Shown here piece by piece: positions 5,880 to 36,898 of a DNA stretch of 64,000 bases. The notes under the pieces were generated by a model. The model saw nothing but the letters and a program-made list of their open reading frames with translations. It had not been told where the DNA came from and made no database searches. The translations under genes were made by a program, and so were the position numbers. This DNA comes from Acidimicrobiales bacterium. Lineage in GTDB: Bacteria > Actinomycetota > Acidimicrobiia > Acidimicrobiales > CATQHL01. Each line of letters begins with the position of its first letter. Position 1 is the first letter of the stretch. The stretch is taken from NCBI GenBank assembly GCA_965116465.1, contig OZ220687.1, positions 2,564,596 through 2,628,595 of the forward strand. Direction: 5' to 3'.

Positions 5880-6646
5880 GCGGCGGCCGGTTCGGCGACG
5901 TTGCCCTGGTGACCGGGGCGGGCAGGGGCATCGGCCGGGCGATCGCCGAGGCAATGACAACCGCCGGGTACGCCGTCGGGGTTTGTGCCCGCTCGGAGGA
6001 AGTCGGCGAAGTAGCCGCCGGGCTGCGCGAGGCCGGAGCGGTCGCGGAGGCTTGGCGAGTGGATGTGACCGACTCCCCGGGACTGCGGCGCTTCGTCGAC
6101 GGAGCGGCCGAGCGGTTCGGTCGCATCGACGTGCTCGTGAACAACGCCGGCATGAATCGTGCCGGCTACATCAGCGACGTCTATGCGAACGAGGTGGATG
6201 CCATGTTCGCCGTCAACGTGCGGGCCCCGCTGGTGGCGATGCAGGCCGTCGCGCCGCACATGGCCGCCGCGGGCGGCGGGCGCATCGTCAACATCGCCTC
6301 CTGGGTGGCGCGCTCACCGCGGCCCGGTTTCGTGGCCTATTCGGCGACCAAGGCCGCGCTCGTCGCGTTGACGCAGGGGGCTGCACTGGAGTTCGCCGAC
6401 AGCGGGATCACCGTCAACGCGGTCTGCCCCGGCAACGTGCTCACCGACATCTGGGAGTCGTGCATCGCCGGCACGTCGCTCGAGGACGGGACCGACGTCG
6501 AGACGCTGTACGCCGAGAGCGTCGCCGCCCAGCCGATCAAGCGGGGCGTGACCGCCGGGGAGGTCGCCGAGGCTGTCCTGTTCCTGTGCAGCGATGCGGC
6601 GGCGAGCATCACCGGCGAGGCCCTGGCCGTGGCCAGCGGGCTCTGA
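5876..6646 (+). CDS. Short-chain dehydrogenase/reductase (SDR)
   Basis: TGAGRGIGRAIA cofactor motif, NNAG, YSATKAAL catalytic motif. 4-bp overlap with hyuB. Confidence 0.85.
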   Translation: MSGGRFGDVALVTGAGRGIGRAIAEAMTTAGYAVGVCARSEEVGEVAAGLREAGAVAEAWRVDVTDSPGLRRFVDGAAERFGRIDVLVNNAGMNRAGYISDVYANEVDAMFAVNVRAPLVAMQAVAPHMAAAGGGRIVNIASWVARSPRPGFVAYSATKAALVALTQGAALEFADSGITVNAVCPGNVLTDIWESCIAGTSLEDGTDVETLYAESVAAQPIKRGVTAGEVAEAVLFLCSDAAASITGEALAVASGL

Positions 6647-6662
6647 GCGGGGAGGAGCACTC

Positions 6663-8696
6663 ATGTCGAATGATCGACCCACAACGCTGATCGGGGTGAC
6701 GTCCGGCTTCGGTCGGCTCAACTTCGACCCGGACACGGGAAGCGTCGAGGTGGAGGGGCTCGGCGCGCTGGACGTCGGGGTGTCGGTGAACGGGTCCCGG
6801 CTGGCTCACGTGCGCACCGAGACGCCGATCCAGAGCCCGCTGATGGGTCGCATCGTCCAGCACCTCGCCGGAGACGGTGTGACGGCGCGCCTCTGCTGGG
6901 ACGCCCACACGACCGAGAACCTGCACGTCTACGCCGGCGTCCGTGCCGAGGGCGCGCTCGAGATCCAGAACGTCGAGTTGCCCCGCGTCACTCTCGGGTC
7001 CGGTGACGGCGCCGCCGCGGTCGACCGGGCCGACGCCTCGGGGGTGCTGGTGGATAGCGCGGCGGTCCTCGGGGTCGCCGTCAAGAAGTACCCGTGGCTT
7101 GCCTCCTGGAACGACGTCGGCGCCTACGGCCACCGCACGCTCGCCGACGGTGTGCTGGCAGCCGACGCCGATGGCGGCGCGCTGGCGCTCAGGTTGGCGT
7201 TCCCCGTCGAGATGGCGGCGGGCCAGACCCTCGAGGCTGCCGTCTTCCTGCGGCGCGGGCCCGCCGACAGCGAGGAGTTCCGTGCCGCGCTGCGTCACGA
7301 GGTCCGCTACGACCACCGTGACGAGGTGCGGTACATCCCCGAGGGCGAGTTCGCCGAGCAGCGGGTCTGGGAGATCGAGGACCGCTGGCTGGGCCCGCCC
7401 ATCACCGAGGGCGCCCTGCATCGTCCCTACGACCAGCTCATCACGCGGCCGCTCGGCTTGAACGTGCTGGCCCGGCGCCGTTTCACCTGGAGCAACGAGG
7501 ACTTCTCGCTCTGGCGTCTCACCGGCAAGGAGCACTACCGCGACTCGGGAGTCAAGAAGGCGTTCGCCCTGATCGACACGCAGAACCGCCACGGCGGCTG
7601 GTACGAGGGGGTCGAATTCATGAACCTCCCGCCAGAGCATCACCACATGTACGACACCTACATCTCGGGCATGTTCCTACTCGATGCCTACGACGCCACC
7701 GGCTACGACGGTTTCCTGCAGGCGGCCGAGCGGGCCGTGGGTTTCTGGGTGTCGAACCCGCCGCCGGCCAACGGCCACGTGGAGGTCGCGGAGGGGGCTT
7801 GGTGGTACCGCTGGGGCGGCTACATCAACGAGTTCGGCTACACCGACGAGCGCTGCGTCCTGAACACGCACTCCGGCGCCACCGCCTTCCTGGCCATGTA
7901 CGCCGAGCGGACCGGCGACCCCGATGCCCGCCGCGGCGCCGAGGCCGGCCTGGCGGCGATGCGCTGGGGACTGGAGCGGGGCATCCAGCGCGGCGACGGT
8001 CAGTTCCTCTACTGCCTCAGCCAGATCGACCCCACCCTGGAGCGCCCCGGCGACCCGCCGTACATCAGGCTCGACCTGGTGCCGCAGATCGAGGACGTGT
8101 ACACGGTGGCGTCCAGCTACCGGCTGATGATGGCGCTGCGCAGCATCCCGGATCCGGTCATCACCGCCGCCATCGGCCGCGCCCTGGACTACTGGTGGGT
8201 GGGCCATCGAGCCGGGACCGTCTACACGTACCGGGCCTACTCGGCGATCGCCTTCGGCGTGGCTGCGGGCGAGATCGATCTGCGCTACGCCATGGCGCTG
8301 CCGGAGATCCTGCGCGACCGGGAGCAGTTCACGTCCATGCAGCGCGGTCTGTCCTCGTTCATCGCGCCGCACGGGTTGCCGATGCCCTACGTGCGGGCAC
8401 GCGGGCGGCCCGGCAAGTTCGTCGAGCCGGTCTTCGTGCGCCGCCGCCACGGCGAGTGCCTGTTCGCGCTGGTCAACACCGAGCAGCCGATGCGCAACAT
8501 CCCCATCGAGGTCGGCCTGCCGGCGGGCACCGCGCTGCGGGGCGCCTCACTCATCGATCCGGCGGGTGCCCCCATCACCGAGGTCCCCACTTCCTGGGCG
8601 CCCGGCGGCGAGCGGACCGCCATCGTGGGCGTGGAGGAACTGCAGGAGTTCGCCGTCACCGTCGTGCGCCTGGAACTCGACGAGCCCGATGGCTGA
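6663..8696 (+). CDS. Hypothetical protein; C-terminal half possibly an alpha/alpha-toroid (glycoside hydrolase/epimerase-like) fold
   Basis: 677 codons with strong GC3 bias. ATG 6663 is preceded by GGGGAGGAG. I recognise no family motif. The Trp/Tyr-rich helical C-terminal half (WWYRWGGYINEFGY, YWWVGHRAG) only loosely recalls (alpha/alpha)6 enzymes. Confidence 0.6.
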   Translation: MSNDRPTTLIGVTSGFGRLNFDPDTGSVEVEGLGALDVGVSVNGSRLAHVRTETPIQSPLMGRIVQHLAGDGVTARLCWDAHTTENLHVYAGVRAEGALEIQNVELPRVTLGSGDGAAAVDRADASGVLVDSAAVLGVAVKKYPWLASWNDVGAYGHRTLADGVLAADADGGALALRLAFPVEMAAGQTLEAAVFLRRGPADSEEFRAALRHEVRYDHRDEVRYIPEGEFAEQRVWEIEDRWLGPPITEGALHRPYDQLITRPLGLNVLARRRFTWSNEDFSLWRLTGKEHYRDSGVKKAFALIDTQNRHGGWYEGVEFMNLPPEHHHMYDTYISGMFLLDAYDATGYDGFLQAAERAVGFWVSNPPPANGHVEVAEGAWWYRWGGYINEFGYTDERCVLNTHSGATAFLAMYAERTGDPDARRGAEAGLAAMRWGLERGIQRGDGQFLYCLSQIDPTLERPGDPPYIRLDLVPQIEDVYTVASSYRLMMALRSIPDPVITAAIGRALDYWWVGHRAGTVYTYRAYSAIAFGVAAGEIDLRYAMALPEILRDREQFTSMQRGLSSFIAPHGLPMPYVRARGRPGKFVEPVFVRRRHGECLFALVNTEQPMRNIPIEVGLPAGTALRGASLIDPAGAPITEVPTSWAPGGERTAIVGVEELQEFAVTVVRLELDEPDG

Positions 8697-10947: not shown

Positions 10948-12120
10948 CTAGCGCAGGCCACCGAAGAACGCTCGGAGATCCTCGAGGAACAGTTCGGGCT
11001 GCTCGAAGGCGGCGAAGTGACCGCCGTGGGGCATCACGGTCCAGTGCCGGAGATCGTCGAAGAACGGCTCGCACCAGGAGCGCACCGGCGGGACGATCTC
11101 CTTCGGGAACTTCGCCACGCCGGTGGGGACCGTGATCGGTGCGATCCTGCCCGTCGGTCGAGGCGCCGACGGCCGGAACGTCTCCCAGTACAGGCGCGCC
11201 GATGAGGTCGCGGCGGCGTTCAGCCAGTAGAGCATCACGTTGTCGAGCAACTCGTCGCGACCCAGCGCGTTCTCCGGATGTCCGTCGCAGTCCGTCCACG
11301 CCCAGAACTTCTCGAGGATCCAGGCTGCCTGGCCTGCCGGCGAATCGGTCAGCCCGTAGCCGAGCGTCTGTGGCCGCGTCGAGTGCTGGCGGTTGTAGGC
11401 CGATCCCCATGCAATGAAGTCCCTGAGCGCGGCCGCGGCGTCCCGCTCCTCGTCGGTCCACGAGGGGTCGGCTGACCGCAGGTCGGGGATCGCCATGTGC
11501 GTTCGCATGACCATGTTCAGATGGATGCCGAGGCAACGTTCGGGATGGCGCGCAGCGATCGCAGTGGTGACGGCGCCGCCCCAGTCGCCTCCCTGGGCGC
11601 CGAACTGGTCGTAGCCCAGCCCCGCCATCAACTCAGCCCAGCAATCGGCGATCCGGTCGACGCCCCAGCCGGTGCGGGTCGGCTTTCCGCTGAAGCCGAA
11701 ACCCGGCAGCGACGGGCAGACCACGTGGAATGCGTCCGACGCCGACCCGCCGTGAGCCACCGGGTCGGCGAGTGGGCCGATCACCTTGGCGAACTCCACC
11801 ACCGATCCGGGCCAGCCGTGGGTGATCACCAGCGGGACGGCGCCGGGCTCCGGCGAGCGGGCATGGATGAAGTGCACGTCCATGTCGCCTAGGCGGGCCA
11901 CGAACTGATCGAACCGGTTGAGAGCCCGCTCCCGTGCTCGCCAGTCGTACTCGTTGGCCCAGTAGTCGCAGACCTCCTGCACGTACGCCAGAGGGATGCC
12001 CTGCGACCAGTCCTCCGCGGTCTCCGCCTCCGGCCAGCGCGTGCGGTGCAGGCGGTCCTTCAAGTCCTGCAGAACCTCGTCGGGAACGGCGATCTCGAAT
12101 GGTGTGACTTCCACGGCCAC
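10948..12120 (-). CDS. Epoxide hydrolase (alpha/beta hydrolase with N-terminal EH domain)
   Basis: N-terminal PFEIAVPDEVLQDLKDRLHRTRWP, HGWPGS oxyanion motif, GGDWGG nucleophile motif. GTG start lies 4 nt after the upstream stop. Confidence 0.85.
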   Translation of the reverse strand: MAVEVTPFEIAVPDEVLQDLKDRLHRTRWPEAETAEDWSQGIPLAYVQEVCDYWANEYDWRARERALNRFDQFVARLGDMDVHFIHARSPEPGAVPLVITHGWPGSVVEFAKVIGPLADPVAHGGSASDAFHVVCPSLPGFGFSGKPTRTGWGVDRIADCWAELMAGLGYDQFGAQGGDWGGAVTTAIAARHPERCLGIHLNMVMRTHMAIPDLRSADPSWTDEERDAAAALRDFIAWGSAYNRQHSTRPQTLGYGLTDSPAGQAAWILEKFWAWTDCDGHPENALGRDELLDNVMLYWLNAAATSSARLYWETFRPSAPRPTGRIAPITVPTGVAKFPKEIVPPVRSWCEPFFDDLRHWTVMPHGGHFAAFEQPELFLEDLRAFFGGLR

Positions 12121-12124
12121 GTGC

Positions 12125-12733
12125 TCAGGAGGGAGAGAACGAGCAGCCGGTCTGGAAGGGGGAGAGCTCCCCGGCGGGGACGTCCACGTCGAAGGCCTGC
12201 ATGAGTTGCGCGAGCAGGTTGTAGTAACCCACGAGTGCTACGAGTTCCATGACGCCTGCGCGGCCGAAGACGTCGCGGGCACCCTCGAAGACCTCGTCGT
12301 CGGGTCGCCGGCCCGCCAGCAGCGCCCGGCAGAGGGCGTGGGCGGCCGCTGCCGGCTCGTCGTCGAATTCGGGCGTCCGGCCGCTGTACAGATCCCTGAT
12401 CTGGTCTTCCCGCAGGCCCGCCCGGCGGGCGATGGGTTCGTGCGCCCACCACTCGAATCCCGAGCGCCAGTGGGCCGCAACCGTCAGGATGGCCACTTCC
12501 CGCACGAGCGGGCTCAGGTCGCAGCCGAAGCGGATGGCGGCACCCACCGACTGGAGGGCGTCGCCGACGACCGGGCTCAGCAGAAGGGCGTTGAACGGAC
12601 CAACCAGGCTGCCGTCGGTCTCGGTCAGCCGGAACGAGGCGTCGCGGGCCCTGTCCCCGCCGGCGATCGATTCGTAGAGGTGCTGCTGTTCGTCGGTGAG
12701 ATCCTCCGGGCGGAGCCCCTCCAGGCGGCTCAC
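12125..12733 (-). CDS. Carboxymuconolactone decarboxylase (AhpD-like) family protein
   Basis: The 202-aa C-terminal part of track ORF 12125..13156 matches the CMD family layout ([21 protein letters not shown]). GTG 12733 overlaps the upstream stop (GTGA). Confidence 0.7.
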
Positions 12734-13830
12734 GTCCCCAGGTCCACGATGGCGGCCACCGAGCCGCCACCCGCCGGGCCCTGCTGCAGGCCCGCCACCG
12801 AGACGAACACAGCGGGGTCGCCGATGGCGGCCGCGGCCACGCCGCCGACCGCCCCCTTGGTGTGGTGCGTGTGATGCACGTCGGAGTCGTTGAGTGCAAC
12901 CTGGCGCCGGTCCCGCAGCCGGCCCGATGGGTCGGCCTCGCACTTGATGAAGCAGTTGACGACGCGGCCGTCGAGATCCTCGGCGCGGGGGCGCTCGGGC
13001 AGGTCCAGTCCCGCCGAGCGGATGGCGTCGTAGATGCCGTCGAAGTCCAGGGCGTCGTTCATGACCGAGTGGCCGATGCGGTAGCGCCCGCCCACGCCGA
13101 GGCGATTGCCGACCACGACGATCTGGGCCTCCACCTGCTCGACACCCGACGAGCACGAGGCGACCGACGAGTACACCGACAGGTCGTGGGCGATCTGCTC
13201 GGGCCGGGGCCGGGGGATCTCGCCGAGCGCGGTGGCGATGCCGAGCGCCGAGGTGGCGTTGGAGACCGCCATCGACTCCATGGTGTCGGTGAGGGCGACG
13301 GTCTTGCCCCGGGAGTGGGCATCGGCGATGCGCTCGGCGGTCAGCAGCGGCGTCTTGGTCTGCACGAAGTGCACATCCGCACTGTCGCTGATGCCGGCGG
13401 CCTCCATGGCCTTGCGCACACCGGCGGCCACCTTGTCCACCATCTCCAGGCGTCCGATCTCCTCGGGCTGGATCGGCTCGGACACGGCGAAGCCCACGGC
13501 GAGGCGCTTCTCGTCGGCGGGCTCGGCGGGGCCGTCCACCTTGGCGAACACCGTCATGTGCGGGGAGATCACGCCGTCGCAGCCGCCGGACCAGGCGATC
13601 GGCACCTGCAGCGCCTCGGAGCGCGTCTTGCCGGCGTGGTCGACGAGGAAGTCCCGCAGCACCCGGTCGGCCAGCACGCGGGAGAAGTCGTTGACCCCCC
13701 CGTTGCCCTCCACCTTGCCGATGAGGGCCACGATCTCATCCGCGGCGAAGTCGCCGGCGGCGATGGCCGCCTCCAGTCCGGAGGTGTCCTGAACGTTCTC
13801 GAAGGGAATCTTGCGTACGACGTAGGGCAT
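12730..13830 (-). CDS. Ring-opening amidohydrolase, cyanuric acid amidohydrolase/barbiturase (AtzD/TrzD) family
   Basis: 366 aa from ATG 13830, with GAGGAGG upstream. Threefold internal organisation and family-typical segments ([35 protein letters not shown]). The length matches this family. Confidence 0.8.
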
Positions 13831-13928
13831 CTCCGGTCCTCCTCGCCCTTGGGGGATGGCTCTGACCAGCGGTGACGCCGAGAGGGTGAATGCCGCCGGC
13901 CGGACGGCCCCATGATAAGCAGTGTTGA

Positions 13929-13940
13929 ATCGTCTACGAT
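13929..13940. promoter_or_regulatory. Palindrome ATCGTCTACGAT in the divergent intergenic region; candidate operator
   Basis: Perfect 5-2-5 inverted repeat inside an AT-enriched pocket between divergent starts 13830(-) and 14010(+). TTGACA at 13945-13950 is nearby. Confidence 0.3.
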
Positions 13941-14009
13941 CCCGTTGACATTTTCCGATCCGGGGGCCGGGAGGGGCTGGCGCCGGGACCGACACGAGGA
14001 GACCATTCC

Positions 14010-15323
14010 ATGTCCGCTCCAAAGCACCTGCTACCTGGCCAGGAGACCCGAAGGGCCGGCGACCTGCTGTACGTCTCGACGATCTTCCCCGTCGACGGCG
14101 CTGGCCGTGCCGTGCAGTCCGCGTCGCATTCGCCCCATATGGGCGACTCCGACGTCTACACCCAGTCCAGCGTCATCCTCGGCGAGCTGGCACGGCGTGT
14201 GGAAGCCGACGGCAGTTCCATGGACCGGGTCCTGCGGGTCGAGGTGCAGCTGGCGGCGACGGCCGACTTCCACGAGTTCAAGCTGGCGTGGATCGACGCC
14301 TTCGGTGACGAGCCCCCGGCCCGCACCACCATCGTCGTCGGCGACGATCAGGTCGTGCCCGGCACCCTCGTGACGCTCAACGCCGTGGCTCTCAACGGTG
14401 GCTCGTCGGCGCAGCGGGAGACCATCCACACCGACGAGGCCCCCGATCCGATGCCCTACGAGCACGTCCCGCAGGCCATCAAGGGGGGGCACTGGGTGTA
14501 TCCCTCGGCGCTGCCGGCCTGCGACTACGAGACGGGCATCCCGCTGGGTGTGGGCAAGAACCTGCCCGCCTTCCCCTACTACGCCAACGACGCCACCGAC
14601 CAGGCCGAGTACGTGTTCGCCAACCTGCAGAAGGTGATGCAGGCCGCCGGCACCGAGGTGGCCAACATCATCAAGGCGCACCTCTACGAGCCCAGCCTCC
14701 TGTCGTTCCCCGACGTGGACGCCGTCTGGGCCCGCTACATGCCCCGCCCGCCGACCCGGGCCTCGATGGCCGCACGCGACCTGCTCGTGGAGCGGGCGGT
14801 GTTCGTGGCCAACCTGGTCGGCGTGATGCCCGACGACTCCATGGAGATCGTCGAGACCCGCAAGGGCATCCACTGGCACCCGGTGCTGGTGCGCAAGGTG
14901 AACTTCACGCCCGGCATCGCCGTCGGCGACGACTGGCTGTTCCTGGCCGGCCAGGTTCCGGTGCCGGACTTCCTGACCGGCGTGGTGGGCACCGGCCCGT
15001 CCAAGCTGCGTCACTACTTCAGTGACATCGAGATGCAGACCGAGACCACCATGCGTCTCATCCAGGACCAGATCGACTCCAACGGCTTCGAGTTGAAGGA
15101 CGTGGTGGACGCCCACATCTTCCTGGTGCACGCCCAGCGCGACTACCGGGGCTTCGAGCGGGCCTGGAACCGCATCATGGCCGAGGCCGGCATCGACGAC
15201 CCGCCGCCGATCACCCTCATCCCGTCACGCCAGCGCGACGGGAACACCGGCATCATGTTCCTCGGCCCCGACGAGCACCTCGTCCCCGACATAGAAATCG
15301 ACTTCATCCTCCACCGCAGCTGA
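14010..15323 (+). CDS. Triple tandem RidA/YjgF/TdcF-family domain protein
   Basis: 437 aa divisible into three ~130-160 aa RidA-like modules. Each has a buried G(D)xxFxSG/LAG-type segment near its start and a PARxxv-type segment near its end (GDLLYVST...PARTTIVV; GHWVYPSA...PTRASMAA; DDWLFLAGQ...). Confidence 0.7.
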
Positions 15324-15349
15324 CTCCGGGCGGTGGCCCGGCCGCCCCA

Positions 15350-15355
15350 TAGAAT
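15350..15355 (+). promoter_or_regulatory. -10-like hexamer TAGAAT 6 nt upstream of the MNT ATG (possible leaderless transcript)
   Basis: TAGAAT at 15350-15355, ATG at 15362, and no Shine-Dalgarno in between. Confidence 0.3.
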
Positions 15356-15361
15356 CGACCC

Positions 15362-15661
15362 ATGGACAATCTGGGCCGGGGTGAGGTCATCGACGTTCTC
15401 CGAGCACACAGGGACGCGCTCGCCGAGCGATTCGGTGTGGCGGAACTGGCCCTGTTCGGCTCGTTCGCCCGCGATCAGGCCACCGAGTCGAGCGATATCG
15501 ACATACTCGTCGGCTTCGACGGGCCCGCTACGTCAAAGTCGTACTTCGGTGTGCAGTTCTACCTGGAGGACCTGCTCGGTCGACGTGTCGACCTCGTGAC
15601 CACCAAAGCGCTCCGCCCCCGGTTCCGCCCCTACGTGGAGCGCGAGGCGGTCCATGTCTGA
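15362..15661 (+). CDS. Nucleotidyltransferase (MNT-type) antitoxin
   Basis: GSFARDQATESSDIDILV minimal nucleotidyltransferase motif. 8-bp overlap with the downstream HEPN gene. Confidence 0.8.
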   Translation: MDNLGRGEVIDVLRAHRDALAERFGVAELALFGSFARDQATESSDIDILVGFDGPATSKSYFGVQFYLEDLLGRRVDLVTTKALRPRFRPYVEREAVHV

Positions 15662-16004
15662 ACCCGAGGGAGATCGCGACTGGCGGCCCTACGTTCAGGA
15701 CATGGTCGAGTTCGGCGAACGGGTGGTCGCGTACGTCGAAGGATTGGATCAGCAGTCGTTCACGACCGATCAGCGCACCTACGACGCCACGCTGCGCAAT
15801 ATCGAACTCCTCGGCGAAGCGGCGACGCATGTCCCCGAGCGCGTGCGCGAGGCGCACCCTGAGATCGCTTGGCGCCAGATCATCGGAACCAGGAATCGCC
15901 TGGCGCACGGCTACCTCGGGATCGACGACGACGTCATCTGGGACATCATCCAGACCGACATCCCGGATCTGCTCGCAGCGCTCGGGCGCCTGCTGAACGA
16001 GTAG
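15654..16004 (+). CDS. HEPN-domain (DUF86/HepT-like) toxin
   Basis: RNRLAHGY (Rx4H HEPN motif), ~115 aa, paired with the MNT gene. Confidence 0.8.
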   Translation: MSEPEGDRDWRPYVQDMVEFGERVVAYVEGLDQQSFTTDQRTYDATLRNIELLGEAATHVPERVREAHPEIAWRQIIGTRNRLAHGYLGIDDDVIWDIIQTDIPDLLAALGRLLNE

Positions 16005-16122
16005 CAGCCAAGATCCGACCGGCCGGATGCGGCACTTCGGGTCTTCCACTGGCTATCCGCGCTATGTCGCGCCGACGCAAACGAGACACCGGGACCATGT
16101 ACCTCACGTTGATTGCCTGAGA

Positions 16123-16252
16123 GCGTTGTGCGCTTCACCGAGCGGGCCGGTGCTGAGGAGAGGCGCTTGCCGTCAGGCCGGTTCGACTATGGCGCCGTAT
16201 CGCTGCTGGGCAGCCTGCGGTGACGTGCCGAGGATCGCGCCGATGCGCTTCC
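16123..16252. repeat. Copy 1 of a ~130-bp dispersed direct repeat (3' end of gene 16173..16445 plus ~50 bp downstream)
   Basis: By-eye alignment with 17398..17527 shows mostly identical bases, e.g. gcgcttgccgt(c/t)aggccgg(t/g)tcgactatggcgccgtatcgctg. Confidence 0.75.
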
Positions 16253-16445
16253 AGGGGATGCCGTTGGCACGCGCCGAGGTGACCGCCTCGGCGATCTGCC
16301 GTTCCCCTCGCGCTCGGGCCAGGACGGCTCGCTCGAGCAGGTATTCCTCGACGGGTCGCTCATCATCGGATGCCGGCTCGTATGCCTCGCATCGCTCGGC
16401 AAGCTGGTCGGCGTGGTCGAGGATCTCTTGGATGGATCGGGGCAT
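16173..16445 (-). CDS. Small HTH protein, putative antitoxin of the upstream toxin-like gene
   Basis: 90 aa. The C-terminal IPWKRIGAILGTSPQAAQQRYG resembles an HTH. Separated by 4 nt from the upstream gene. Confidence 0.45.
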   Translation of the reverse strand: MPRSIQEILDHADQLAERCEAYEPASDDERPVEEYLLERAVLARARGERQIAEAVTSARANGIPWKRIGAILGTSPQAAQQRYGAIVEPA

Positions 16446-16449
16446 TGGG

Positions 16450-16671
16450 CTACTCCAGGAACTTCCGGCGAGCGGTCATGGCGTGAACGATGAAGTCGAT
16501 GCCCTCGCTTCGCGCGACTCCGATCTCGACGAGTCGTGCGGACTCGTCGGGCCCTATCAGCATGATCAGGTCTTCGAGGTCGAAGACTCGGATCGGGTTC
16601 CTGTACGCGTACAGCATGTCGTCATCGGAGATCCCGTGTTTTCGTGCGCTACCCAGGATAACCGGATCCAC
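16450..16671 (-). CDS. Small toxin-like protein (BrnT/DUF497-like, tentative)
   Basis: 73 aa. SARKHGISDDDMLYAYRNP and C-terminal HAMTARRKF recall BrnT-type toxins. Toxin-first order with a downstream HTH partner. Confidence 0.4.
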   Translation of the reverse strand: MDPVILGSARKHGISDDDMLYAYRNPIRVFDLEDLIMLIGPDESARLVEIGVARSEGIDFIVHAMTARRKFLE

Positions 16672-16684
16672 GAAATCAAGTTAT

Positions 16685-16736
16685 CTTGTGCGCTCCCATC
16701 GAGCGCGGGACGGGCCGTTTCCGCGAGGCGCACAAG
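16685..16736. other. 9-bp perfect inverted repeat CTTGTGCGC/GCGCACAAG with 34-nt spacer (intergenic RNA structure or operator)
   Basis: Arms at 16685-16693 and 16728-16736, lying between gene 16815..17288 and gene 16450..16671. Confidence 0.3.
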
Positions 16737-16814
16737 CAGATCGCGCACTGCCGCGCCGATGCGAGACGCGGGCATCGTCGACGGCGGTGAATGACAACGG
16801 GGCGCCTTTTCCTG

Positions 16815-17288
16815 TCAGTAGTCGAGACGGAGGCGCTGAGCTTCGGCAGTGAGTTCGTCGGCGATCGCGCGCCGTTCGGCATCGTCGCGGTGCTTGTACT
16901 CGATGACATCGGCGAGCAGGATCCTCCGACGGTTGCCCACCCGCCGGTGAGGGATCCTCCGCTCGTCGAGCAGCTTTACCAGGTAGGGCCGTGAAACGTT
17001 GAGCAGGTCAGCGGCCTGCTGAGTTGTCAACTCAGCATGGACAGGGGCGACCGTGACGCCATTGCCGTTGGAAATCTCAGTCAGGATGTCCACGAGCAGC
17101 CGCAAGGCGTGGCCCGGGATCTCCAGGGTGGCGCTGCTGTCGTCTGCGACCAGCGATACCGAGGCGGTATCGATGCCCGGATGGTGTCGCAGGAACCGCC
17201 CGAGCGTGTCGACGGCCTCGGCAGCCCGCGCCGCTGTTGCCTCGTCGGGCACAGCGAGTTGGTGTTCGAGCAATGCTGTGGTGGGCAT
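16815..17288 (-). CDS. Excisionase/MerR-type HTH DNA-binding protein (antitoxin-like)
   Basis: C-terminal TTQQAADLLNVSRPYLVKLLDERRIPHRRVGNRRRILLADVIEY is a typical HTH_17/excisionase motif. AAGGAGGA lies upstream of ATG 17288. Confidence 0.6.
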   Translation of the reverse strand: MPTTALLEHQLAVPDEATAARAAEAVDTLGRFLRHHPGIDTASVSLVADDSSATLEIPGHALRLLVDILTEISNGNGVTVAPVHAELTTQQAADLLNVSRPYLVKLLDERRIPHRRVGNRRRILLADVIEYKHRDDAERRAIADELTAEAQRLRLDY

Positions 17289-17299
17289 GGTCGGTCCTC

Positions 17300-17375
17300 C
17301 TTGTGTGATGCGCGTAGCGTAGGACGCTAGGTACGTGTCTGCAATACTCGAAATAGAAGTAGTATTCGAATCGAC
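17300..17375 (-). promoter_or_regulatory. AT-rich promoter/operator pocket upstream of the HTH gene
   Basis: Contains TAGCGT-AGG-ACGCTA and AATACT-N12-AGTATT inverted repeats. It is unusually AT-rich for this sequence. Confidence 0.3.
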
Positions 17376-17397
17376 ACAGCACGTTCGTGAGCCGGAA

Positions 17398-17527
17398 GCG
17401 TGTTGGTCTTCACCGATCGGGCTGGCGCTGGGGTGGGGCGCTTGCCGTTAGGCCGGGTCGACTATGGCGCCGTATCGCTGTTGCGCAGCCTGTGGCGAGG
17501 TGCCGAGGATCTTGCCGATGCGCTTCG
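17398..17527. repeat. Copy 2 of the ~130-bp repeat; carries a truncated 3' fragment of an HTH antitoxin-like gene (pseudogene remnant)
   Basis: The minus-strand reading gives ..KRIGKILGTSPQAAQQRYGAIVDPA-stop. There is no matching 5' part, and the fragment abuts the vapC stop at 17542. Confidence 0.7.
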
Positions 17528-17541
17528 ACCGTCCGGGGGAG

Positions 17542-17922
17542 TTACGCGCGGGCGGGGAGGGTCGCCACGTCGTAGGCGAGGAGTTGTTCGTCGGCTGTCA
17601 CGAGGGTGAGCGACTCGGCCTGTACCTGGGCCACGAGCATGCGATCGAACGGATCGGCGTGGTGCGGGGGTAGTCGGGTGGCCGCGTCGGCGTGCGCCGC
17701 CGTGATCGGCAACTCCTCGAACCCGCAGGCCAGGAGTTCGGCAACAAGCCCGTCGGGATACTCAATCCTGCCTTTCGCTCGCTTGATGCCGAGTTCCCAT
17801 GGCGTCACCGCCGAGAAGTACACCTCGTCTGCTGTTCTGAGGTGGTCTCCGCACTCGTCCCCGAGCAGGGCCGACTGGCCCAGCGCCCAGAGAGCGACAT
17901 GGCTGTCGAGCAACAACCTCAC
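17542..17922 (-). CDS. vapC: PIN-domain ribonuclease toxin VapC
   Basis: 126 aa from GTG 17922 (GTGA overlap with the antitoxin stop). N-terminal LLLDSH acidic residue and DPFDRMLVAQ motif. Confidence 0.8.
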   Translation of the reverse strand: MRLLLDSHVALWALGQSALLGDECGDHLRTADEVYFSAVTPWELGIKRAKGRIEYPDGLVAELLACGFEELPITAAHADAATRLPPHHADPFDRMLVAQVQAESLTLVTADEQLLAYDVATLPARA

Positions 17923-18176
17923 GACGGGTCGTCGAGCGCCGATTGTTCGAACAGGGCATTGACCTCCTCGTCGGAGCCGACGATGTCGTCGAGTATCCGT
18001 ATCTGACCGGCCCATGACCCCAGCACCCGCTGATCTCGGGCAGGTGGCCACGCAATGATCTTCGCCACCGGCCGCCCGTTGCGAGCCACGATCACGTCGC
18101 TGCCCGCCTCGGCCTGCCGGATCAACTCCGATAGCCGGCTCTTCGCCTCGTGGGTGTTCACCATGAGAGTTGACAT
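17919..18176 (-). CDS. Phd/YefM-family antitoxin
   Basis: MSTLMVNTHEAKSRLSELIRQAEAGSDVIVARNGRPVAKI is a typical Phd/YefM N-terminus. Overlaps vapC. Confidence 0.8.
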   Translation of the reverse strand: MSTLMVNTHEAKSRLSELIRQAEAGSDVIVARNGRPVAKIIAWPPARDQRVLGSWAGQIRILDDIVGSDEEVNALFEQSALDDPS

Positions 18177-18177
18177 G

Positions 18178-18194
18178 GTCTTAGCCTAGCTAAG
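18178..18194. promoter_or_regulatory. Perfect palindrome TCTTAGC-CTA-GCTAAGA directly upstream of the antitoxin ATG; candidate TA operator
   Basis: 7-3-7 inverted repeat ending 2 nt from ATG 18176. Confidence 0.4.
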
Positions 18195-18329
18195 ACTGTT
18201 ACTATCTCCTCCGGTCACGCGACACGCTGAGCCCGCAAGGGATCCAGAGCGATTCGAGGTCGGCGAGATCCACACGGGCGTAACTCGTGTTTCCGGCTTC
18301 AGCGGTTGCGCGAGGATGCTCGTGATGCC

Positions 18330-19925
18330 ATGACTGCTCGACCCGCCCGACGCCTTCTCACCACTGGGTGCGCCGTCCTCGCTCTCGCTGCCGCATGCGG
18401 ACACGTGGATGTTCGGTCGTCGGCGCCTGCGACGACCGAACCAATGCCTCCGAACACCGAGGTGGACGGGGGGTCGGTGGATGGCCCGTCGTCGTCGGCG
18501 CCTGGGACGACTGAGCCGATCTATCCGAGCACCGAGGTGGATGGGGGGCGAGTGGCTGATTCGCCACCGCTGACCACGACGACCGAGCCGGTCCCTCCGA
18601 GTACCCAGGTCGACGGTGGGCGGGTCGCCGAGCCGTCAACGGTGCCCGCGACGACGGCCGACTCGACGGAAGCGCCGCCAGCACCCAGAAGTGTCGACGC
18701 AGATGATCCCGGCGCATTGTCCGCCGATGCGCGCTCGCTCATCGGTAGCTGGCACACCGCCGTGTTAGCGACGACCGGGGTGTGGCCGGGCTTCGATCTT
18801 GCATCGATCCCAACTGTGTTGGCAGCAATCGACGACGAGGGAGCCATCCGAGCCACGGTGGCGTTCAACCACCCGAACCCGCTTGTACTCGGCACTCTGG
18901 TTCGGAACCTGGACGTCGACGGCCACGAGGTCGCGGTCATCGGAGAGGTGGCCGACCCGGATTGGCTGGTCGCCCGAGCCCCGTTCGACTTCTTCGCCGA
19001 CGTCGGTGGGACGGACACGTTCGTGCTGATCAGCCAGGAAGGTGAACTCGGTCTTGAGTCTGGGACCCCCGAGTTCATCGCCACGCTCGTGCACGAGGCG
19101 TTCCACCGGTATCAGTGGGATGAGTGGGCCCCGCGTGCGACGGGGCAATACATCGAGACTTACGACTTCTCGGCGGCGAACCTCGAACTGGCGCTGCTCG
19201 AGAACCGGATCCTCATCGCCGCCTACCAGGCCGAGGATCCCGGTGACCTCGAACGCCTCGCCCGCCAGTTCGCCGCGGTACGTGCCACGCGTCACCAACG
19301 CGACCAGGCCTGGGACGATCGGGTCGACCATGACGAAGCACAGGAACGCACGGAGGGATCCGCTCAATTCGTCGAGCACCGGATCGGCGACTCGATCGGC
19401 AACGTCTACCGCACGGCAACCAACCACACCGAGGACTTGGAGTTCCACGACGAGATCCTCTCGAACCCGGAGGTGCTCGTCGCCAACATCGCGTGGTACG
19501 AAGTCAGCATCAAGACGTACTTCAGCTTCGGTCGCTTCTACGGCAGCGGAGCCACGCTGCTCGTCCTACTAGATCGCCTCGGTGTGCCCGATGTCGCCCA
19601 GCAACTGCAGGACGGCAGGACACCCGCGGGCCTGCTGGAGCACCACATCGCACCGCTTGGTGATCTCGACGAACTGGTCGCCGATGCCCAGGCCGAGCAC
19701 GACCCCGATGGCCGACTCGCTGCGGTTGCAGTGACCCTCTCTGAACTGGCGATCGACGAACCGGCGACCGCCCTGGGCCATGATGGCGAATCTGTCCTGA
19801 CAGTTACACAGATTGCCTGCCTTGTGGCTCATGGGATCGACATCGGCGACCGCATGGGCATTCCTCAGAACGTCGTTGACGAGTGCCTGGTCGAAGCGGA
19901 TGACTCCGATGGCGCTTCCCCCTGA
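18330..19925 (+). CDS. Putative lipoprotein with Thr/Pro-rich tandem repeats and an HExxH motif (possible metallopeptidase)
   Basis: Signal/lipobox LLTTGCAVLALAAAC. Three TTEPxxPxTxVDGGxV repeats. LVHEAFHRY motif. Start at ATG 18330; TTG 18306 is possible. Confidence 0.6.
   Translation: MTARPARRLLTTGCAVLALAAACGHVDVRSSAPATTEPMPPNTEVDGGSVDGPSSSAPGTTEPIYPSTEVDGGRVADSPPLTTTTEPVPPSTQVDGGRVAEPSTVPATTADSTEAPPAPRSVDADDPGALSADARSLIGSWHTAVLATTGVWPGFDLASIPTVLAAIDDEGAIRATVAFNHPNPLVLGTLVRNLDVDGHEVAVIGEVADPDWLVARAPFDFFADVGGTDTFVLISQEGELGLESGTPEFIATLVHEAFHRYQWDEWAPRATGQYIETYDFSAANLELALLENRILIAAYQAEDPGDLERLARQFAAVRATRHQRDQAWDDRVDHDEAQERTEGSAQFVEHRIGDSIGNVYRTATNHTEDLEFHDEILSNPEVLVANIAWYEVSIKTYFSFGRFYGSGATLLVLLDRLGVPDVAQQLQDGRTPAGLLEHHIAPLGDLDELVADAQAEHDPDGRLAAVAVTLSELAIDEPATALGHDGESVLTVTQIACLVAHGIDIGDRMGIPQNVVDECLVEADDSDGASP
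18416..18636 (+). repeat. Three imperfect in-frame ~72-75-bp tandem repeats inside the lipoprotein gene
   Basis: Repeated accga(a/g)cc...ccgag(c/t)acc(g/c)aggt(g/c)ga(c/t)gg(g/t)gggc units, read directly from the sequence. Confidence 0.6.
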
Positions 19926-19990
19926 CGCTGCTCCGACCGCGCTGCTGCAGCGCGCCCGGCGCGCAAGAGCGTCATCTAGGAGAATCACCT

Positions 19991-33279: not shown

Positions 33280-35499
33280 TCAGCGCCCGTTGCCACCGCC
33301 GGCGGCGGCCCGCCAGACCTTCTCGGGCGTGAACGGCATGTCGAGGTGGCGGACTCCGAACGGTGCCAGAGCGTCGAGGACGGCGCTCTGCACGGCGGGT
33401 GTGGCGCCCACGGTCCCGGCCTCGCCGATGCCCTTCGCGCCCAGCGGGTTGAGCGGCGTGGGTGTCGTGTTGCGGTGGGTCTCGAAATCGCAGAACTCCG
33501 CCGCCGACGGGATGAGGTAGTCCCCGAAGTTGGTGGTGCGGGGCCCGCCGCCGGTGTCGTAGACCATCTCCTCCCACAGCGCCTGGGCGATGCCCTGGGC
33601 GATGCCGCCGTGCTGCTGGCCCTCGGCCAGCAGCGGGTTGATGACGTTGCCGCAGTCGTCCACGCAGAGGTGGCGCAGTTGGCGGACGTCGCCGGTCTCG
33701 GTGTCCACCTCGACGACGGCCACGTGTGTGCCGAACGGGAACGTCCGGGAACCCTGGTCGAAGTCGCACTCGGCGGCCAGCGGCTCGGGGGAGAGTTCGG
33801 CGAGCCTGCTCCACGAGAGCACGGTGTCCGGCGACCCGGCCACGCCGAGGCCCTCCTCGTGGTACACGGCGATGTCGTCCACGTTCGCCTCGAGATGCTC
33901 GGCGGCGACCTGGCGGGCCTGGTCCACGACGGCGGCGGCGGCGCGGTCGATCGCGGAGCCGCCCAGTTGCAGGGAGCGCGAGCCGTATGTGCCGTTGCCG
34001 CGGGGAACCAGGTCGGTGTCGGACTGGACGACGCTGATGTGCTGCCAGGGGATCCCCAGTTGCTCCGAGGCGATCTGGGCGTAGGTCGTCTGGTGGCCCT
34101 GCCCGTGGGACGAGACGCCCGACAGCACCGTTACCGTGCCGTCGTCGTGGATCTCCACCGAGCCGTAGTCGTTGCTGGGACCGTTGCCGGTGACCTCGAT
34201 GTAGTTGGCGACGCCGATGCCGAGCTGGTGGCGGTCTCCCCGGCGGCGACGCTCGGCCTGTTCCCTGCGCAACTCCTCGTAGCCGACGAGTTCGACCGCG
34301 CGTTCCATCGCCGCCAGGTAGTTGCCGGCGTCGTAGACGGCGCCCGTGGGGGTCTCAACAGGGTCGCTGTGGGTCTCGATCAGGTTCCGGCGCCGCACCT
34401 CGACCGCGTCCATGCCCAGCTCGGCCGCCAGGAGGTCCATGGCCCGCTCCACGGTCGCGGCCGCCTCGGGCCGCCCCGCCCCTCGCAGGGCGCCGGTGGG
34501 CGCGGTGTTGGTCACGACGCTCCTCGCCCGGAAGTCGATCCGCGGGATCCGGTAGGTGCCCGAGGCCATCATCTTGGTGTAGAAGATCAGCCAGGCGCCG
34601 ATGTCGGGGTAGGCGCCGGCGTCCTGGGTGACGCTCCACTTCATGCCCACGACGGTGCCGTCGGACCTCGCCCCGATCTCCACGTCCTGGACCTGGCCAC
34701 GGGCGTGGCCCATGTGGAGCATGTTCTCGGTGCGGGACTCGATCCAGAGCAACGGCTCGCCGAGCCGCACAGCCAATGCCGCGGTCACGACCTGCTCCAC
34801 ATAGGCGTGGCCCTTGGCTCCGAACCCGCCGCCGGTTGCCGGAACCACCACATGGATCCGGTCGATGTCGAGTTCCAGGCAGTCGGCGATGGTCTGCTGG
34901 ACCGAGAACGGGCACTGGGTGGGGACCCAGAGCCGCAGGCGCCCCTGACCGTTGTCGCCCCCGACGTTCGGGATCGCCAGGATCCCGTTGGTCTCCATCG
35001 GCGCGGGCGCGATCTTCTGGTTCACGTATCTGAACGACACGACGACGTCGGCGTCGTCGAGCGCGCCCGGGTCCTCGGCCGGGTCGACCTCGAACACGAC
35101 CTCGGTGCTGTCCATCGGATCGGAGATGCCGGGCAGCTCCTCGATCTCGACGACGACCTCCTCGGCTCGGTCGCGCGCCTCCGCGAGGGTGTCGGCCACG
35201 ACGACCGCCACGGGATCGCCCACGTATCCGACCGTCCCGCGAGCCAGAGCCGGACGCCCGAAGTGAGAGGGTGCCGGCGGGCCGGCCAGCATGTCGGGAA
35301 TGTTCAGGTCGTCCGCCGTGTAGACGCCTTCGCCTCCGGAGATGCCCACGATCCGCCCGTGCGGCACGTCGGAGCGCACGAAGACGACGCTGCGCGCCTC
35401 GACGTCGAGGTCGTCCACGTAGGGGCGGCCGCCGACCAGCAGAGCCGCATCCTCGCGGCGCAGCACGCTGTGGCCGAGGATCGAGCCTGCCGCCGCCAT
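33280..35499 (-). CDS. Xanthine dehydrogenase/CO dehydrogenase-family molybdopterin-binding large subunit (stand-alone)
   Basis: N-terminal GHSVLRREDAALLVGGRPYVDD, 739 aa, aldehyde oxidase/XDH a/b-hammerhead plus Mo-binding layout. No adjacent FeS or FAD subunit genes. Confidence 0.85.
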   Translation of the reverse strand: MAAAGSILGHSVLRREDAALLVGGRPYVDDLDVEARSVVFVRSDVPHGRIVGISGGEGVYTADDLNIPDMLAGPPAPSHFGRPALARGTVGYVGDPVAVVVADTLAEARDRAEEVVVEIEELPGISDPMDSTEVVFEVDPAEDPGALDDADVVVSFRYVNQKIAPAPMETNGILAIPNVGGDNGQGRLRLWVPTQCPFSVQQTIADCLELDIDRIHVVVPATGGGFGAKGHAYVEQVVTAALAVRLGEPLLWIESRTENMLHMGHARGQVQDVEIGARSDGTVVGMKWSVTQDAGAYPDIGAWLIFYTKMMASGTYRIPRIDFRARSVVTNTAPTGALRGAGRPEAAATVERAMDLLAAELGMDAVEVRRRNLIETHSDPVETPTGAVYDAGNYLAAMERAVELVGYEELRREQAERRRRGDRHQLGIGVANYIEVTGNGPSNDYGSVEIHDDGTVTVLSGVSSHGQGHQTTYAQIASEQLGIPWQHISVVQSDTDLVPRGNGTYGSRSLQLGGSAIDRAAAAVVDQARQVAAEHLEANVDDIAVYHEEGLGVAGSPDTVLSWSRLAELSPEPLAAECDFDQGSRTFPFGTHVAVVEVDTETGDVRQLRHLCVDDCGNVINPLLAEGQQHGGIAQGIAQALWEEMVYDTGGGPRTTNFGDYLIPSAAEFCDFETHRNTTPTPLNPLGAKGIGEAGTVGATPAVQSAVLDALAPFGVRHLDMPFTPEKVWRAAAGGGNGR

Positions 35500-35533: not shown

Positions 35534-36898
35534 TCAGGCCGACGGGGCGTAGCCGATCAGGTCCAGGATGACGTGCGCGCCGGGCACCTGCAGCGGTCCG
35601 CCGATGCGCATCGTCGTGGAGGCCGGCTTGGAGCCGGGGAAGTGGCGTGCCCACTCGTTGATGGAGATCTGGAAGTCGGCGAAGTCGGCGTGGTAGCACT
35701 GCCGCTTGCAGATGTTCTCCAGCGAGGTGCCGGCGGCCTCGCAGATGGCCGAGATGTTGCCCAGCAGGTACTCCATCTCCATCTGCGGCGGCAGGCCGTA
35801 GTGCGGGAATCCGGGATTGCGCTGGACGCTCTTGGGCAGGCTGCCCCGCTCGTCGGTGGGGATCATGGTGCTGAAGAACAGGTAGTCACCCGCCTTCACG
35901 GCCTGCGGCTCGTGCCATGGGGGCTCCACCGCGTCCGACGTCTCGATGGTCTCCTTGGAGATGGAGGCGTCATCGGCCAGCAGCTTCATGGCGATCTCGA
36001 TGCGCGAGCCCATGCCGCCCAGGCCCATGTAGGGCACCACGACGCGGGCCGGCGGGTTCTCCGGGAACCACTGGCGCCACACCCTGTCCATGCCCGCGAA
36101 GTCGTTCGGGCCCGACAGGTACACGGTTGCCTTCACGCAGTTGTCCTGCAGCGACGAGGCGCCGGCGGCCGCGGCGATCTTCTCGAGCTTCTGCAGGGTG
36201 TAGTCGGTCTGGCGCTCGATCGGCGAGTCGTACCAGAGGTACGGGTTGACGCGTGCTTCGGGGGCGAGGCCGCTGAGGGGGCCCATGTGGCGCTCCGACA
36301 TCCAGTCGCCCATCCAGTCCACCGGGATCTCCCCGGCCAGGAAGATCCAGTCGCCGCGCCGGATGGCCGGCGAGTAGCCCGCCAGCGGCGACGGCACGCC
36401 CTCGGGTGTCTCGTAGCCGACGCTCGGACCGCCGGGGATCGCCAGCAGGTCGACCTCGATGAGCGAGTCCGCCACCAGCAGTTCCTTGATGCCCATGCCG
36501 GTGGAGGCAGGGCGGGGCGGCTTGATGTAGAGGTCGCGGGTGCGCAGGTAGGGCGTGATGGTGATGCGCGGCCAGGTGTTGCCTTCGGCGAACTCCTCCA
36601 TCGTCGGGTACTCCGAGGTGAACCACTGGTAGATGCGCACCACGTCGGTGGCGATGTCGCAGCCGGCGGCGGCCAGGGTGGACGTGAGGTTGTCGAGGAT
36701 GATTTTGGACTGCAGTTCCAGGTGGTTGTCCAGGTACGGGTTGCGCCCGTCACCGCCACCTTCGGCCGTGATGCCCGTCTCGAAGTCGGTGGCGAGCTGA
36801 CCGGACAGGAAGACCCAATCACCGGCCTTGACGCACGGCGTGTAGGGCATGAGCGGCATGGGCTCGCCGCCCCAGATGTGTTGGATGTCGCTGGACAT
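35534..36898 (-). CDS. Triple tandem RidA/YjgF-family domain protein (second copy of this architecture)
   Basis: 454 aa in three RidA-like modules (GDWVFLSGQ.., GDWIFLAGE.., GDYLFFSTM..). Confidence 0.7.
   Translation of the reverse strand: MSSDIQHIWGGEPMPLMPYTPCVKAGDWVFLSGQLATDFETGITAEGGGDGRNPYLDNHLELQSKIILDNLTSTLAAAGCDIATDVVRIYQWFTSEYPTMEEFAEGNTWPRITITPYLRTRDLYIKPPRPASTGMGIKELLVADSLIEVDLLAIPGGPSVGYETPEGVPSPLAGYSPAIRRGDWIFLAGEIPVDWMGDWMSERHMGPLSGLAPEARVNPYLWYDSPIERQTDYTLQKLEKIAAAAGASSLQDNCVKATVYLSGPNDFAGMDRVWRQWFPENPPARVVVPYMGLGGMGSRIEIAMKLLADDASISKETIETSDAVEPPWHEPQAVKAGDYLFFSTMIPTDERGSLPKSVQRNPGFPHYGLPPQMEMEYLLGNISAICEAAGTSLENICKRQCYHADFADFQISINEWARHFPGSKPASTTMRIGGPLQVPGAHVILDLIGYAPSA

Follow-up and report, generated by a model that had tools for sequence, protein, structure and literature searches.

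Three minus-strand genes at 10948-13830 of a 64,000-nucleotide (nt) stretch of DNA from an Acidimicrobiales bacterium (contig OZ220687.1, positions 2,564,596 to 2,628,595; the whole stretch is called the window here) raise the question of what happens to a cyclic amide after its ring has been opened. An initial annotation, made from the sequence of the window, had described them as genes for an AtzD/barbiturase-family ring-opening amidohydrolase (Bar), a carboxymuconolactone decarboxylase-family protein (CMD) and an epoxide hydrolase (EH). Which ring does Bar open, and does either of the two other proteins act on the product? The explanation that we favour, with a confidence only a little above even, is that a Bar-type hydrolase would open barbiturate or a 5-substituted analogue, that it would be paired with CMD acting on the ring-opened acid, and that EH would have been appended to this pair. 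The features of the locus are as follows.

12730..13830, minus strand: Bar, predicted barbiturase-clade cyclic amide hydrolase of the Toblerone fold, 366 amino acids (aa), from ATG 13830 to TGA 12730
12125..12733, minus strand: CMD, predicted CMD/AhpD-fold protein, 202 aa, from GTG 12733 to TGA 12125
10948..12120, minus strand: EH, predicted microsomal-type epoxide hydrolase, 388-390 aa, with EHN and Abhydrolase_1 domains
13831..14009, no strand: divergent intergenic region between Bar and 3x-RidA, with a conserved block of ~43 nt; candidate shared promoter/operator
14010..15323, plus strand: 3x-RidA, 437 aa, three RidA/YjgF domains (PF01042, three stretches)

The open reading frame (ORF) listing, the translations and the DNA itself confirmed the three minus-strand genes. 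The GTG start codon of CMD overlaps the stop codon of Bar as GTGA (12730-12733), and EH starts either at GTG 12120, 4 nt past the CMD stop, or at a second GTG at 12114, 10 nt past it. An independent gene call, available for a public contig that encodes an identical Bar protein, reproduced all three, the first two overlapping by 4 nt and the third following after 10 nt. The three family assignments and the chained coupling (GTGA overlap, 4-nt gap) of the initial annotation were thus borne out by the ORFs, by the Pfam and NCBIfam matches and by the independent gene call. The G + C content at third codon positions (GC3) was 0.87-0.90 for Bar and EH, supporting coding; the CMD ORF had no separate row in the GC3 table. 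Bar and CMD are presumably co-transcribed. By itself the overlap is ordinary, short overlaps being common in operons. A scan of 10.7-15.5 kb found no consensus promoter or terminator, and there were no Rfam matches in the window. The G + C content of the window is ~70%. It belongs to a genome of a single contig (3.53 Mb, 94.5% complete), the nearest public relatives of which are mostly sponge-associated Acidimicrobiales metagenome-assembled genomes.

Bar matched its family over the full length (PF09663, 446 bits, model positions 2-358 of 358; TIGR02714, 452 bits). Its best solved relative is the barbiturase of Rhodococcus erythropolis (5HWE, 437 bits), followed by the Moorella cyanuric acid hydrolase (CAH; 303 bits), TrzD (294 bits) and AtzD (236 bits). 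It is 60% identical to the Rhodococcus barbiturase over 362 residues and 42-49% identical to AtzD, TrzD and the Moorella CAH. The initial annotation had suggested that Bar be placed in a phylogeny and its Ser-Lys dyads be inspected. In a maximum-likelihood tree of 50 sequences, which does not include Peat groups I and III-V, Bar and all its relatives grouped with barbiturase, opposite AtzD, TrzD and the Moorella CAH; the split has a support of 100/100 with a long branch between the two sides, and the clade of the window protein, of 47 rows, has 5HWE at its base. All three dyads are intact. By alignment with the AtzD residues K42/S85, K162/S233, K296/S344 and R54, they were mapped to K39/S81, K159/S227 and K296/S344 of Bar, with R51 also present, and these residues are invariant or nearly so among 119 relatives. 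When the family metal-binding loop (S-x-x-x-x-x-Q-G-P-x-G-G-G, after the third serine) was searched, the QGPxGGG core was found to be kept after S344, with the Glu-His of the CAHs (AEHQGP) replaced by Leu-Gln.

Five specificity positions, 195, 321, 325, 345 and 346 in AtzD numbering, were proposed by Peat et al. 2013 (PMC3758960). Members of the barbiturase subgroup are expected to hydrolyse barbiturate and to be inhibited by cyanurate, which they do not turn over. At these positions barbiturase (Group VI of Peat et al. 2013) has N, H, K, V and S/A and the CAHs have R, T, R, G and G; Bar has N, T, K, V and A (own residues N191, T321, K325, V345 and A346). It therefore matches the barbiturase signature at four of the five positions and the CAH signature at one, Thr321. 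The same pattern was found in the 119 close relatives, with N in 119, T in 107 and H in 10, K in 118, V in 118 and A in 116. Judged by its sequence, the 366-aa protein is a barbiturase-clade enzyme and not a cyanurate hydrolase, and T321 leaves some room for an altered substrate.

It is very improbable in our view that Bar is nevertheless a cyanuric acid hydrolase, with CMD or spontaneous chemistry removing the carboxyl group of carboxybiuret and the locus serving the scavenging of nitrogen from triazines or cyanurate. Bar does pass the NF052395 "cyanuric acid amidohydrolase" equivalog (433.6 bits, cut-off 360 bits), but so does the characterised barbiturase 5HWE, with 477 bits, and because a true barbiturase passes the same model its name is uninformative on the specificity of Bar. 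The Thr at position 321 is indeed that of the CAHs; however, the other four specificity positions are barbiturase-like, among them those of the lost second and third substrate-binding Arg (N191, K325) and of the Val at 345, and the tree groups Bar with barbiturase at 100/100. An isochorismatase-family gene, of the family of BiuH and TrtA, is present in the window (37046-37867), but it is 23 kb from Bar. In addition, carboxybiuret decarboxylates spontaneously (PMC3758960, PMC4051656), so that a dedicated decarboxylase is less needed. The initial annotation had considered a pyrimidine/barbiturate-like or a triazine-like route; the phylogeny, the specificity residues and the genes beside Bar in relatives (see below) speak for the former, and the single CAH residue out of five speaks against the latter.

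The pairing of Bar with CMD is real and conserved. A scan of one genome per species gave 65 related loci (given here by L numbers), ~62 of them assessable at species level, and these were compared with the window proteins by tblastn. CMD lies directly downstream of Bar in 31 of these ~62 loci. Wherever a locus has a Bar of at least 80% identity and a downstream flank, CMD adjoins it, and the same holds for L052 with its Bar of 68% identity. The loci with the pair are spread over three parts of the Bar tree, namely the clade of the window, that of Candidatus (Ca.) Poriferisocius and, nested in the sister group, a third one. The pair is present in each of the 13 members sampled from the clade that comprises the window and Ca. 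Poriferisocius, and its bearers are mostly sponge-associated Acidimicrobiia. The distance between the two genes is -4 nt in the clade of the window, 1 nt in L074 and 64 nt in L075. That the arrangement has been kept in relatives while CMD diverged to 46-51% identity is more than chance would give.

In an even sample of the order, Bar was present in 16 of 301 Acidimicrobiales genomes, including all five sampled from the family of the window, and of the 15 such genomes other than that of the window itself, 6 had CMD as the next gene downstream. Four Aldehydirespirator-like genomes carry a high-scoring CMD homologue 10-47 kb from Bar, and in several other genomes a more divergent CMD was found 11-26 kb away. 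One pair stands on an 8-kb contig binned as Verrucomicrobiales (L014); its Bar is 80% identical and nested inside the Acidimicrobiia clade, which indicates either mis-binning or horizontal transfer. Two database relatives of Bar, P0016 (584 aa) and P0017 (378 aa), arose by reading through frameshifts in long-read metagenome-assembled genomes, and a Bar-CMD fusion as Rosetta-stone evidence was rejected, the 584-aa P0016 being such an artefact.

EH is another matter. The protein matched EHN (PF06441, 136 bits) and Abhydrolase_1 (76 bits), scored 391 and 364 bits with the solved epoxide hydrolases 5F4Z and 4I19, and has the oxyanion motif HGWP as well as QGGDWGG (with the Asp nucleophile in GGDWG) and GGHF in its translation; it appears to be a typical microsomal-type epoxide hydrolase with an Asp nucleophile. 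However, tblastn of the related loci showed that EH directly follows CMD in none but the nearest relatives. In L006, L007 and L026 a displacement of 1.9-3.7 kb was seen, and no EH orthologue was found at E <= 1e-40 in the genomes of L003, L012, L013 and L027, though 3x-RidA, Bar and CMD are kept there. The EH paralogues of the other clades (48-55% identity) share a chromosome or contig with Bar but are 0.3 to about 3 Mb distant from it. Because it is displaced, absent or far from Bar in relatives that keep Bar-CMD, EH was evidently added to the operon late, in the nearest genus alone, and is dispensable; the function of Bar and CMD would not need it. Thus, of the adjacency of CMD and EH to the hydrolase, the conservation of which the initial annotation had left to a survey of homologues, only the CMD part stood.

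The same survey bears on the possibility that CMD and EH form a module of their own, a PcaC/PcaD-like decarboxylase and alpha/beta-hydrolase for a lactone or epoxide, the place of which behind Bar is incidental operon packing. PcaC and PcaD are classically paired or fused, CMD homologues are translationally coupled to alpha/beta hydrolases in L069-L071, EH weakly matches a PcaDC model, and CMD and EH are only 4 nt apart. Against this stand the four genomes with Bar-CMD and no EH orthologue, the two further clades that keep Bar-CMD with their EH paralogues far from Bar, and the displacement of EH in three loci. Moreover, EH looks like an Asp-nucleophile epoxide hydrolase (391 bits to 5F4Z) and not like an enol-lactonase. 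We consider such a module rather improbable, though less so than cyanurate hydrolysis.

Which chemistry, then, could CMD contribute beside a barbiturase-clade enzyme? Its match to PF02627 is marginal (24.3 bits, cut-off 23). Homologues in a set of 5.8 billion proteins are mainly 184-202 aa long and come mostly from relatives of the source organism, with proteins of 40-55% identity from other phyla in addition. In alignment A1 of CMD, R28, G45-P46-F47, R68, E79, E94-x3-H98 and G169-Y170-Y171 are invariant and N48 is nearly so; no conserved Cys was found among the invariant or nearly invariant columns. A CMD profile gave only weak AhpD/CMD matches in the PDB (E about 1e-3 or weaker), the best being Streptococcus pneumoniae AhpD (6E8L), in which the two Cys of a C-A-F-C stretch align with S/x and E94. 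The AlphaFold (AF2) model of CMD has a predicted local distance difference test (pLDDT) score of 91.8, and a Foldseek search with it returned AhpD/CMD-fold structures with prob 1.00 and template modelling (TM) scores of 0.68-0.73 at <=18% identity. The closest were the debrominase Bmp8 (6OHJ), SMU.961 (3LVY) and again 6E8L. The predicted structure thus places CMD in the AhpD/CMD fold. Thiol-dependent chemistry of the AhpD-type peroxidase or Bmp8-type debrominase kind was excluded for CMD, which has no CxxC or catalytic Cys. E94-x3-H98 is presumably the equivalent of the PcaC catalytic motif; to our knowledge there is no agreed sequence signature of a PcaC-type decarboxylase. A characterised close relative of this ~200-aa subfamily was not found. 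An idea suggested by the first three contexts, that the subfamily always trails ring-opening hydrolases, was dropped after a wider Actinomycetota sample showed mixed neighbours.

The genes beside Bar in relatives point to a pathway. In oxidative pyrimidine catabolism uracil or thymine is converted to barbiturate and this to ureidomalonate, and a molybdenum (Mo) hydroxylase next to barbiturase is what this route requires. A three-subunit Mo hydroxylase is encoded directly beside Bar-CMD in two of the three Bar subclades, and Mo-hydroxylase genes stand beside Bar in L074, L075, L092, L095 and the Aldehydirespirator-like loci. In L074 (Ca. Poriferisocius) the pair is divergent from an operon that contains them, in the order amidase, RidA, a 53-aa ORF, DUF1989, 2Fe-2S, alpha/beta hydrolase, old yellow enzyme (OYE), FAD subunit, 2Fe-2S and Mo subunit. 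The 53-aa ORF (8023-8184, minus strand, between RidA and DUF1989) belongs to no family and has no match in the genome of the window. In L075, of the third clade, Bar-CMD-permease-permease is divergent from the Mo subunit, the FAD subunit and 2Fe-2S, with an NMT1-type binding protein, an Amidohydro_2 protein and an ATP-binding cassette (ABC) ATPase alongside; beyond the Mo hydroxylase, Bar and CMD, the only other enzyme of this cluster is the Amidohydro_2 protein. In the Aldehydirespirator-like loci the neighbours of Bar are a branched-chain-type ABC importer, Rieske/VanA-like oxygenases and Mo-hydroxylase subunits. Finally, in L067 CMD lies beside RidA, a C-N hydrolase, a cupin and an FAD-Mo-FeS-Mo block, the latter being syntenic with 43.4-51.0 kb of the window. 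The adjacency of the Mo hydroxylases in relatives fits oxidative pyrimidine catabolism.

The island in the window is compact, with 3x-RidA divergent from Bar-CMD-EH, an unrelated sugar-type ABC/hydantoinase block on one side and a toxin-antitoxin insertion followed by cobQ on the other. The initial annotation had counted Mo hydroxylases, an isochorismatase and a C-N hydrolase to the neighbourhood of Bar. This does not hold for the window: they are separated from Bar by unrelated genes and by the toxin-antitoxin insertion, and together with a second 3x-RidA and a Bmp/PnrA nucleoside-type ABC importer they lie 19-37 kb away. Their link to Bar comes from synteny in relatives and not from adjacency in the window.

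On the explanation that we favour, Bar would carry out the second step of oxidative pyrimidine catabolism, opening barbiturate or a 5-substituted pyrimidine-trione to ureidomalonate, and CMD, of the cysteine-less E-x3-H type, would act on the ring-opened acid. Decarboxylation of the malonyl half-acid (N-malonylurea to N-acetylurea and CO2) is the reaction that we would expect first, because this chemistry is most in keeping with the CMD family. It would pull the Bar reaction forward; the work of Soong and colleagues of 2001/2002 is said to have found the barbiturase reaction reversible. The initial annotation had assigned CMD to a labile carboxylated product. This rationale was not upheld, since PMC3758960 describes ureidomalonate, in contrast to carboxybiuret, as stable; an enzyme would therefore have to remove it. 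CMD is the best-placed consumer of ureidomalonate, because it is tightly coupled to Bar and in L075 is one of only two candidate enzymes. The searchable literature yielded no ureidomalonase gene and none for whatever step follows barbiturase. By position, the candidates for a ureidomalonase are the amidase in L074 and CMD or the Amidohydro_2 protein in L075. That CMD consumes ureidomalonate, most likely as a new N-malonylurea decarboxylase that yields acetylurea, is accordingly put forward as a tentative proposal, clearly less secure than the explanation as a whole.

Several observations weigh against this explanation. Position 321 of Bar is Thr as in the CAHs, where the characterised barbiturase has His. 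There is no Mo hydroxylase within 19 kb of Bar in the organism's own genome; it has at least six Mo hydroxylase loci, but those adjacent to Bar in relatives have no clear orthologue (<=43% identity) among them. A search of this genome found no urease alpha subunit and no orthologue of the Poriferisocius amidase or DUF1989 protein; an orthologue of the S9 hydrolase was not found either. No CMD was present within 9 kb of canonical Actinomycetota barbiturase loci (68-87% identical to the Rhodococcus enzyme); two of the genomes with a canonical barbiturase do have a CMD homologue, at a distance of over 0.5 Mb. We know of no CMD-family enzyme that acts on acyl-ureas. Lastly, CMD-subfamily homologues elsewhere have IclR, luciferase-like monooxygenase, metallo-beta-lactamase (MBL) hydrolase, CoxG/nitroreductase and CoA transferase neighbours, and because these contexts are heterogeneous the subfamily is not dedicated to barbiturate metabolism.

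Alternatively, Bar might open another cyclic amide, such as a substituted pyrimidine-trione or a host-derived N-heterocycle, with CMD, and in this genus EH, processing the side groups and the T321 subclade forming a new specificity group within the barbiturase branch. The substitution of Thr for His at 321 is found in 107 of the 119 close relatives, and the neighbourhoods of relatives contain Rieske/VanA-like and OYE proteins, S15 and S9 hydrolases, a cyclase, TauD and at least two Mo hydroxylases, which exceed the needs of a conversion of uracil to barbiturate; the lack of urease and of a Poriferisocius-type amidase in the organism's own genome points the same way. However, the rest of the active-site residues of Bar match barbiturase, and the minimal cluster of L075 (Mo hydroxylase, Bar, CMD, Amidohydro_2 and transporter) fits a simple nucleobase route. 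The proposal also names no candidate compound. We therefore consider it unlikely, though the least unlikely of the three alternatives discussed here.

The 437-aa protein encoded divergently from Bar contains three stretches of PF01042, each third of it matching RidA structures in the PDB, and this "3x-RidA" architecture has already been named (PMC4433059). Every Bar of at least 89% identity has it as a companion, and in the Ca. Poriferisocius clade its position is taken by an amidase and, after it, a RidA of one domain, which makes a RidA-type function the second partner that recurs with Bar. In the genus of the window the 3x-RidA gene would share the control region of Bar. The intergenic region contains a block of ~43 nt (about 13913-13955) that is near-identical in the window and in L001, L003, L007 and L010, with diverging flanks (alignment A2). 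Within it lies the palindrome ATCGTCTACGAT (13929-13940), present in five genomes of the nearest clade. The conserved ATCGTCTACGAT block suggests shared control of Bar and 3x-RidA and is a candidate promoter/operator.

The Toblerone fold has been interpreted as a concatenated YjgF trimer (PMC3758960). An evolutionary link between 3x-RidA and Bar was rejected, as a profile-profile comparison gave a probability of 0.04% and there was no sequence evidence for it. The window encodes two distantly related 3x-RidA paralogues (14010-15323, plus strand; 35534-36898, minus strand) of 22-28% identity, the best alignment of which is domain-shifted. The second one lies between a lone Mo-hydroxylase large subunit (33280-35499) and the isochorismatase gene (37046-37867), downstream of the Bmp/PnrA-type nucleoside ABC importer. 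A full HMMER search found ~200 cluster representatives at E<=1e-10, many of them of 400-460 aa.

Two further stretches flank the island. Between the 3x-RidA gene and cobQ, positions 15324-19990 form a block of lower G + C content (0.64-0.65) with MNT/HepT, Phd/PIN, an HTH_17 gene and a 493-aa protein without assignment. As cobQ lies ~100 nt from the 3x-RidA gene in L002 and L011, this block is an insertion in the lineage of the window. On the other side, within the hydantoinase/sugar-ABC block, a gene on the plus strand (6594-8696) between a short-chain dehydrogenase/reductase (SDR) and a 2-hydroxyacid dehydrogenase encodes a protein of ~680-700 aa. It has a GC3 of 0.91, a strong coding signal and no Pfam family, matched a glucuronyl C5-epimerase C-terminal domain only below the threshold (15.9 bits) and is conserved with ~85% identity in L001, L004 and L010.

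The biochemistry of the oxidative pyrimidine pathway dates from the 1950s, but its genetics are incomplete. A translationally coupled and conserved partner of Bar is a concrete candidate for the reaction that follows barbiturase or for one that replaces it. If CMD does consume ureidomalonate, this would be a variant of the pathway that bypasses ureidomalonase and malonate, and it would provide the first function for the ~200-aa GPFN/E-x3-H subfamily of CMD proteins. Enzymes of the barbiturase clade seem to be widespread among sponge-associated Acidimicrobiia (all five genomes sampled from the family of the window and dozens of related, mostly sponge-associated metagenome-assembled genomes), and this distribution of Bar, wider than had been assumed, points to the scavenging of nucleobases inside the sponge host. 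In addition, NF052395 automatically names barbiturases as cyanurate hydrolases, which could inflate estimates of triazine-degrading potential in metagenomes.

The locus may finally be compared with known systems. CMD resembles the PcaC/AhpD-like superfamily (PF02627) in its predicted all-helical fold and in the E-x3-H at the position of the family's active-site helix; it differs from the solved members by an identity of <=18%, by having no CxxC or catalytic Cys and by a length of ~200 aa with GPF, R28, R68 and GYY. In the Escherichia coli Rut pathway the ring-opened ureide is handled by RutB, an isochorismatase-type ureidoacrylate amidohydrolase, by RutC, of the RidA family, and by the alpha/beta hydrolase RutD. 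The window likewise has 3x-RidA and an alpha/beta hydrolase beside Bar, and an isochorismatase with a 3x-RidA at 35.5-37.9 kb, a likeness by family only. Unlike in Rut, no RutA-type monooxygenase was found in the cluster, and the ring would be opened hydrolytically, by a Toblerone-fold enzyme after oxidation. AtzD, TrzD and the Moorella CAH (4BVQ, 5T13, 6BUM) have the Toblerone-fold family (PF09663/TIGR02714), the dyads and Thr321 in common with Bar; they differ by their 42-49% identity, their separate clade and the residues R-T-R-G-G, and their partners AtzEFGH and BiuH are absent next to Bar.

The closest counterpart is the barbiturase of R. erythropolis JCM 3132 (Bar, EC 3.5.2.1, 5HWE), which is like the window protein in its clade, its dyads, Arg51 and N191/K325/V345/A346 and differs by a His, not a Thr, at AtzD position 321. 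In L090 (8494-9429) and L091 (8345-9463), from other Actinomycetota, an amino-acid-kinase-family, carbamate-kinase-like gene stands immediately before barbiturases 85-87% identical to the Rhodococcus enzyme, overlapping Bar in L091; this hints that carbamate, and not only urea, may leave the canonical pathway. Canonical barbiturase loci have an amino-acid-kinase gene directly upstream, PucR regulators, a xanthine/uracil permease or a C-N hydrolase and no CMD, whereas the partners of Bar in the window are CMD, 3x-RidA and EH.

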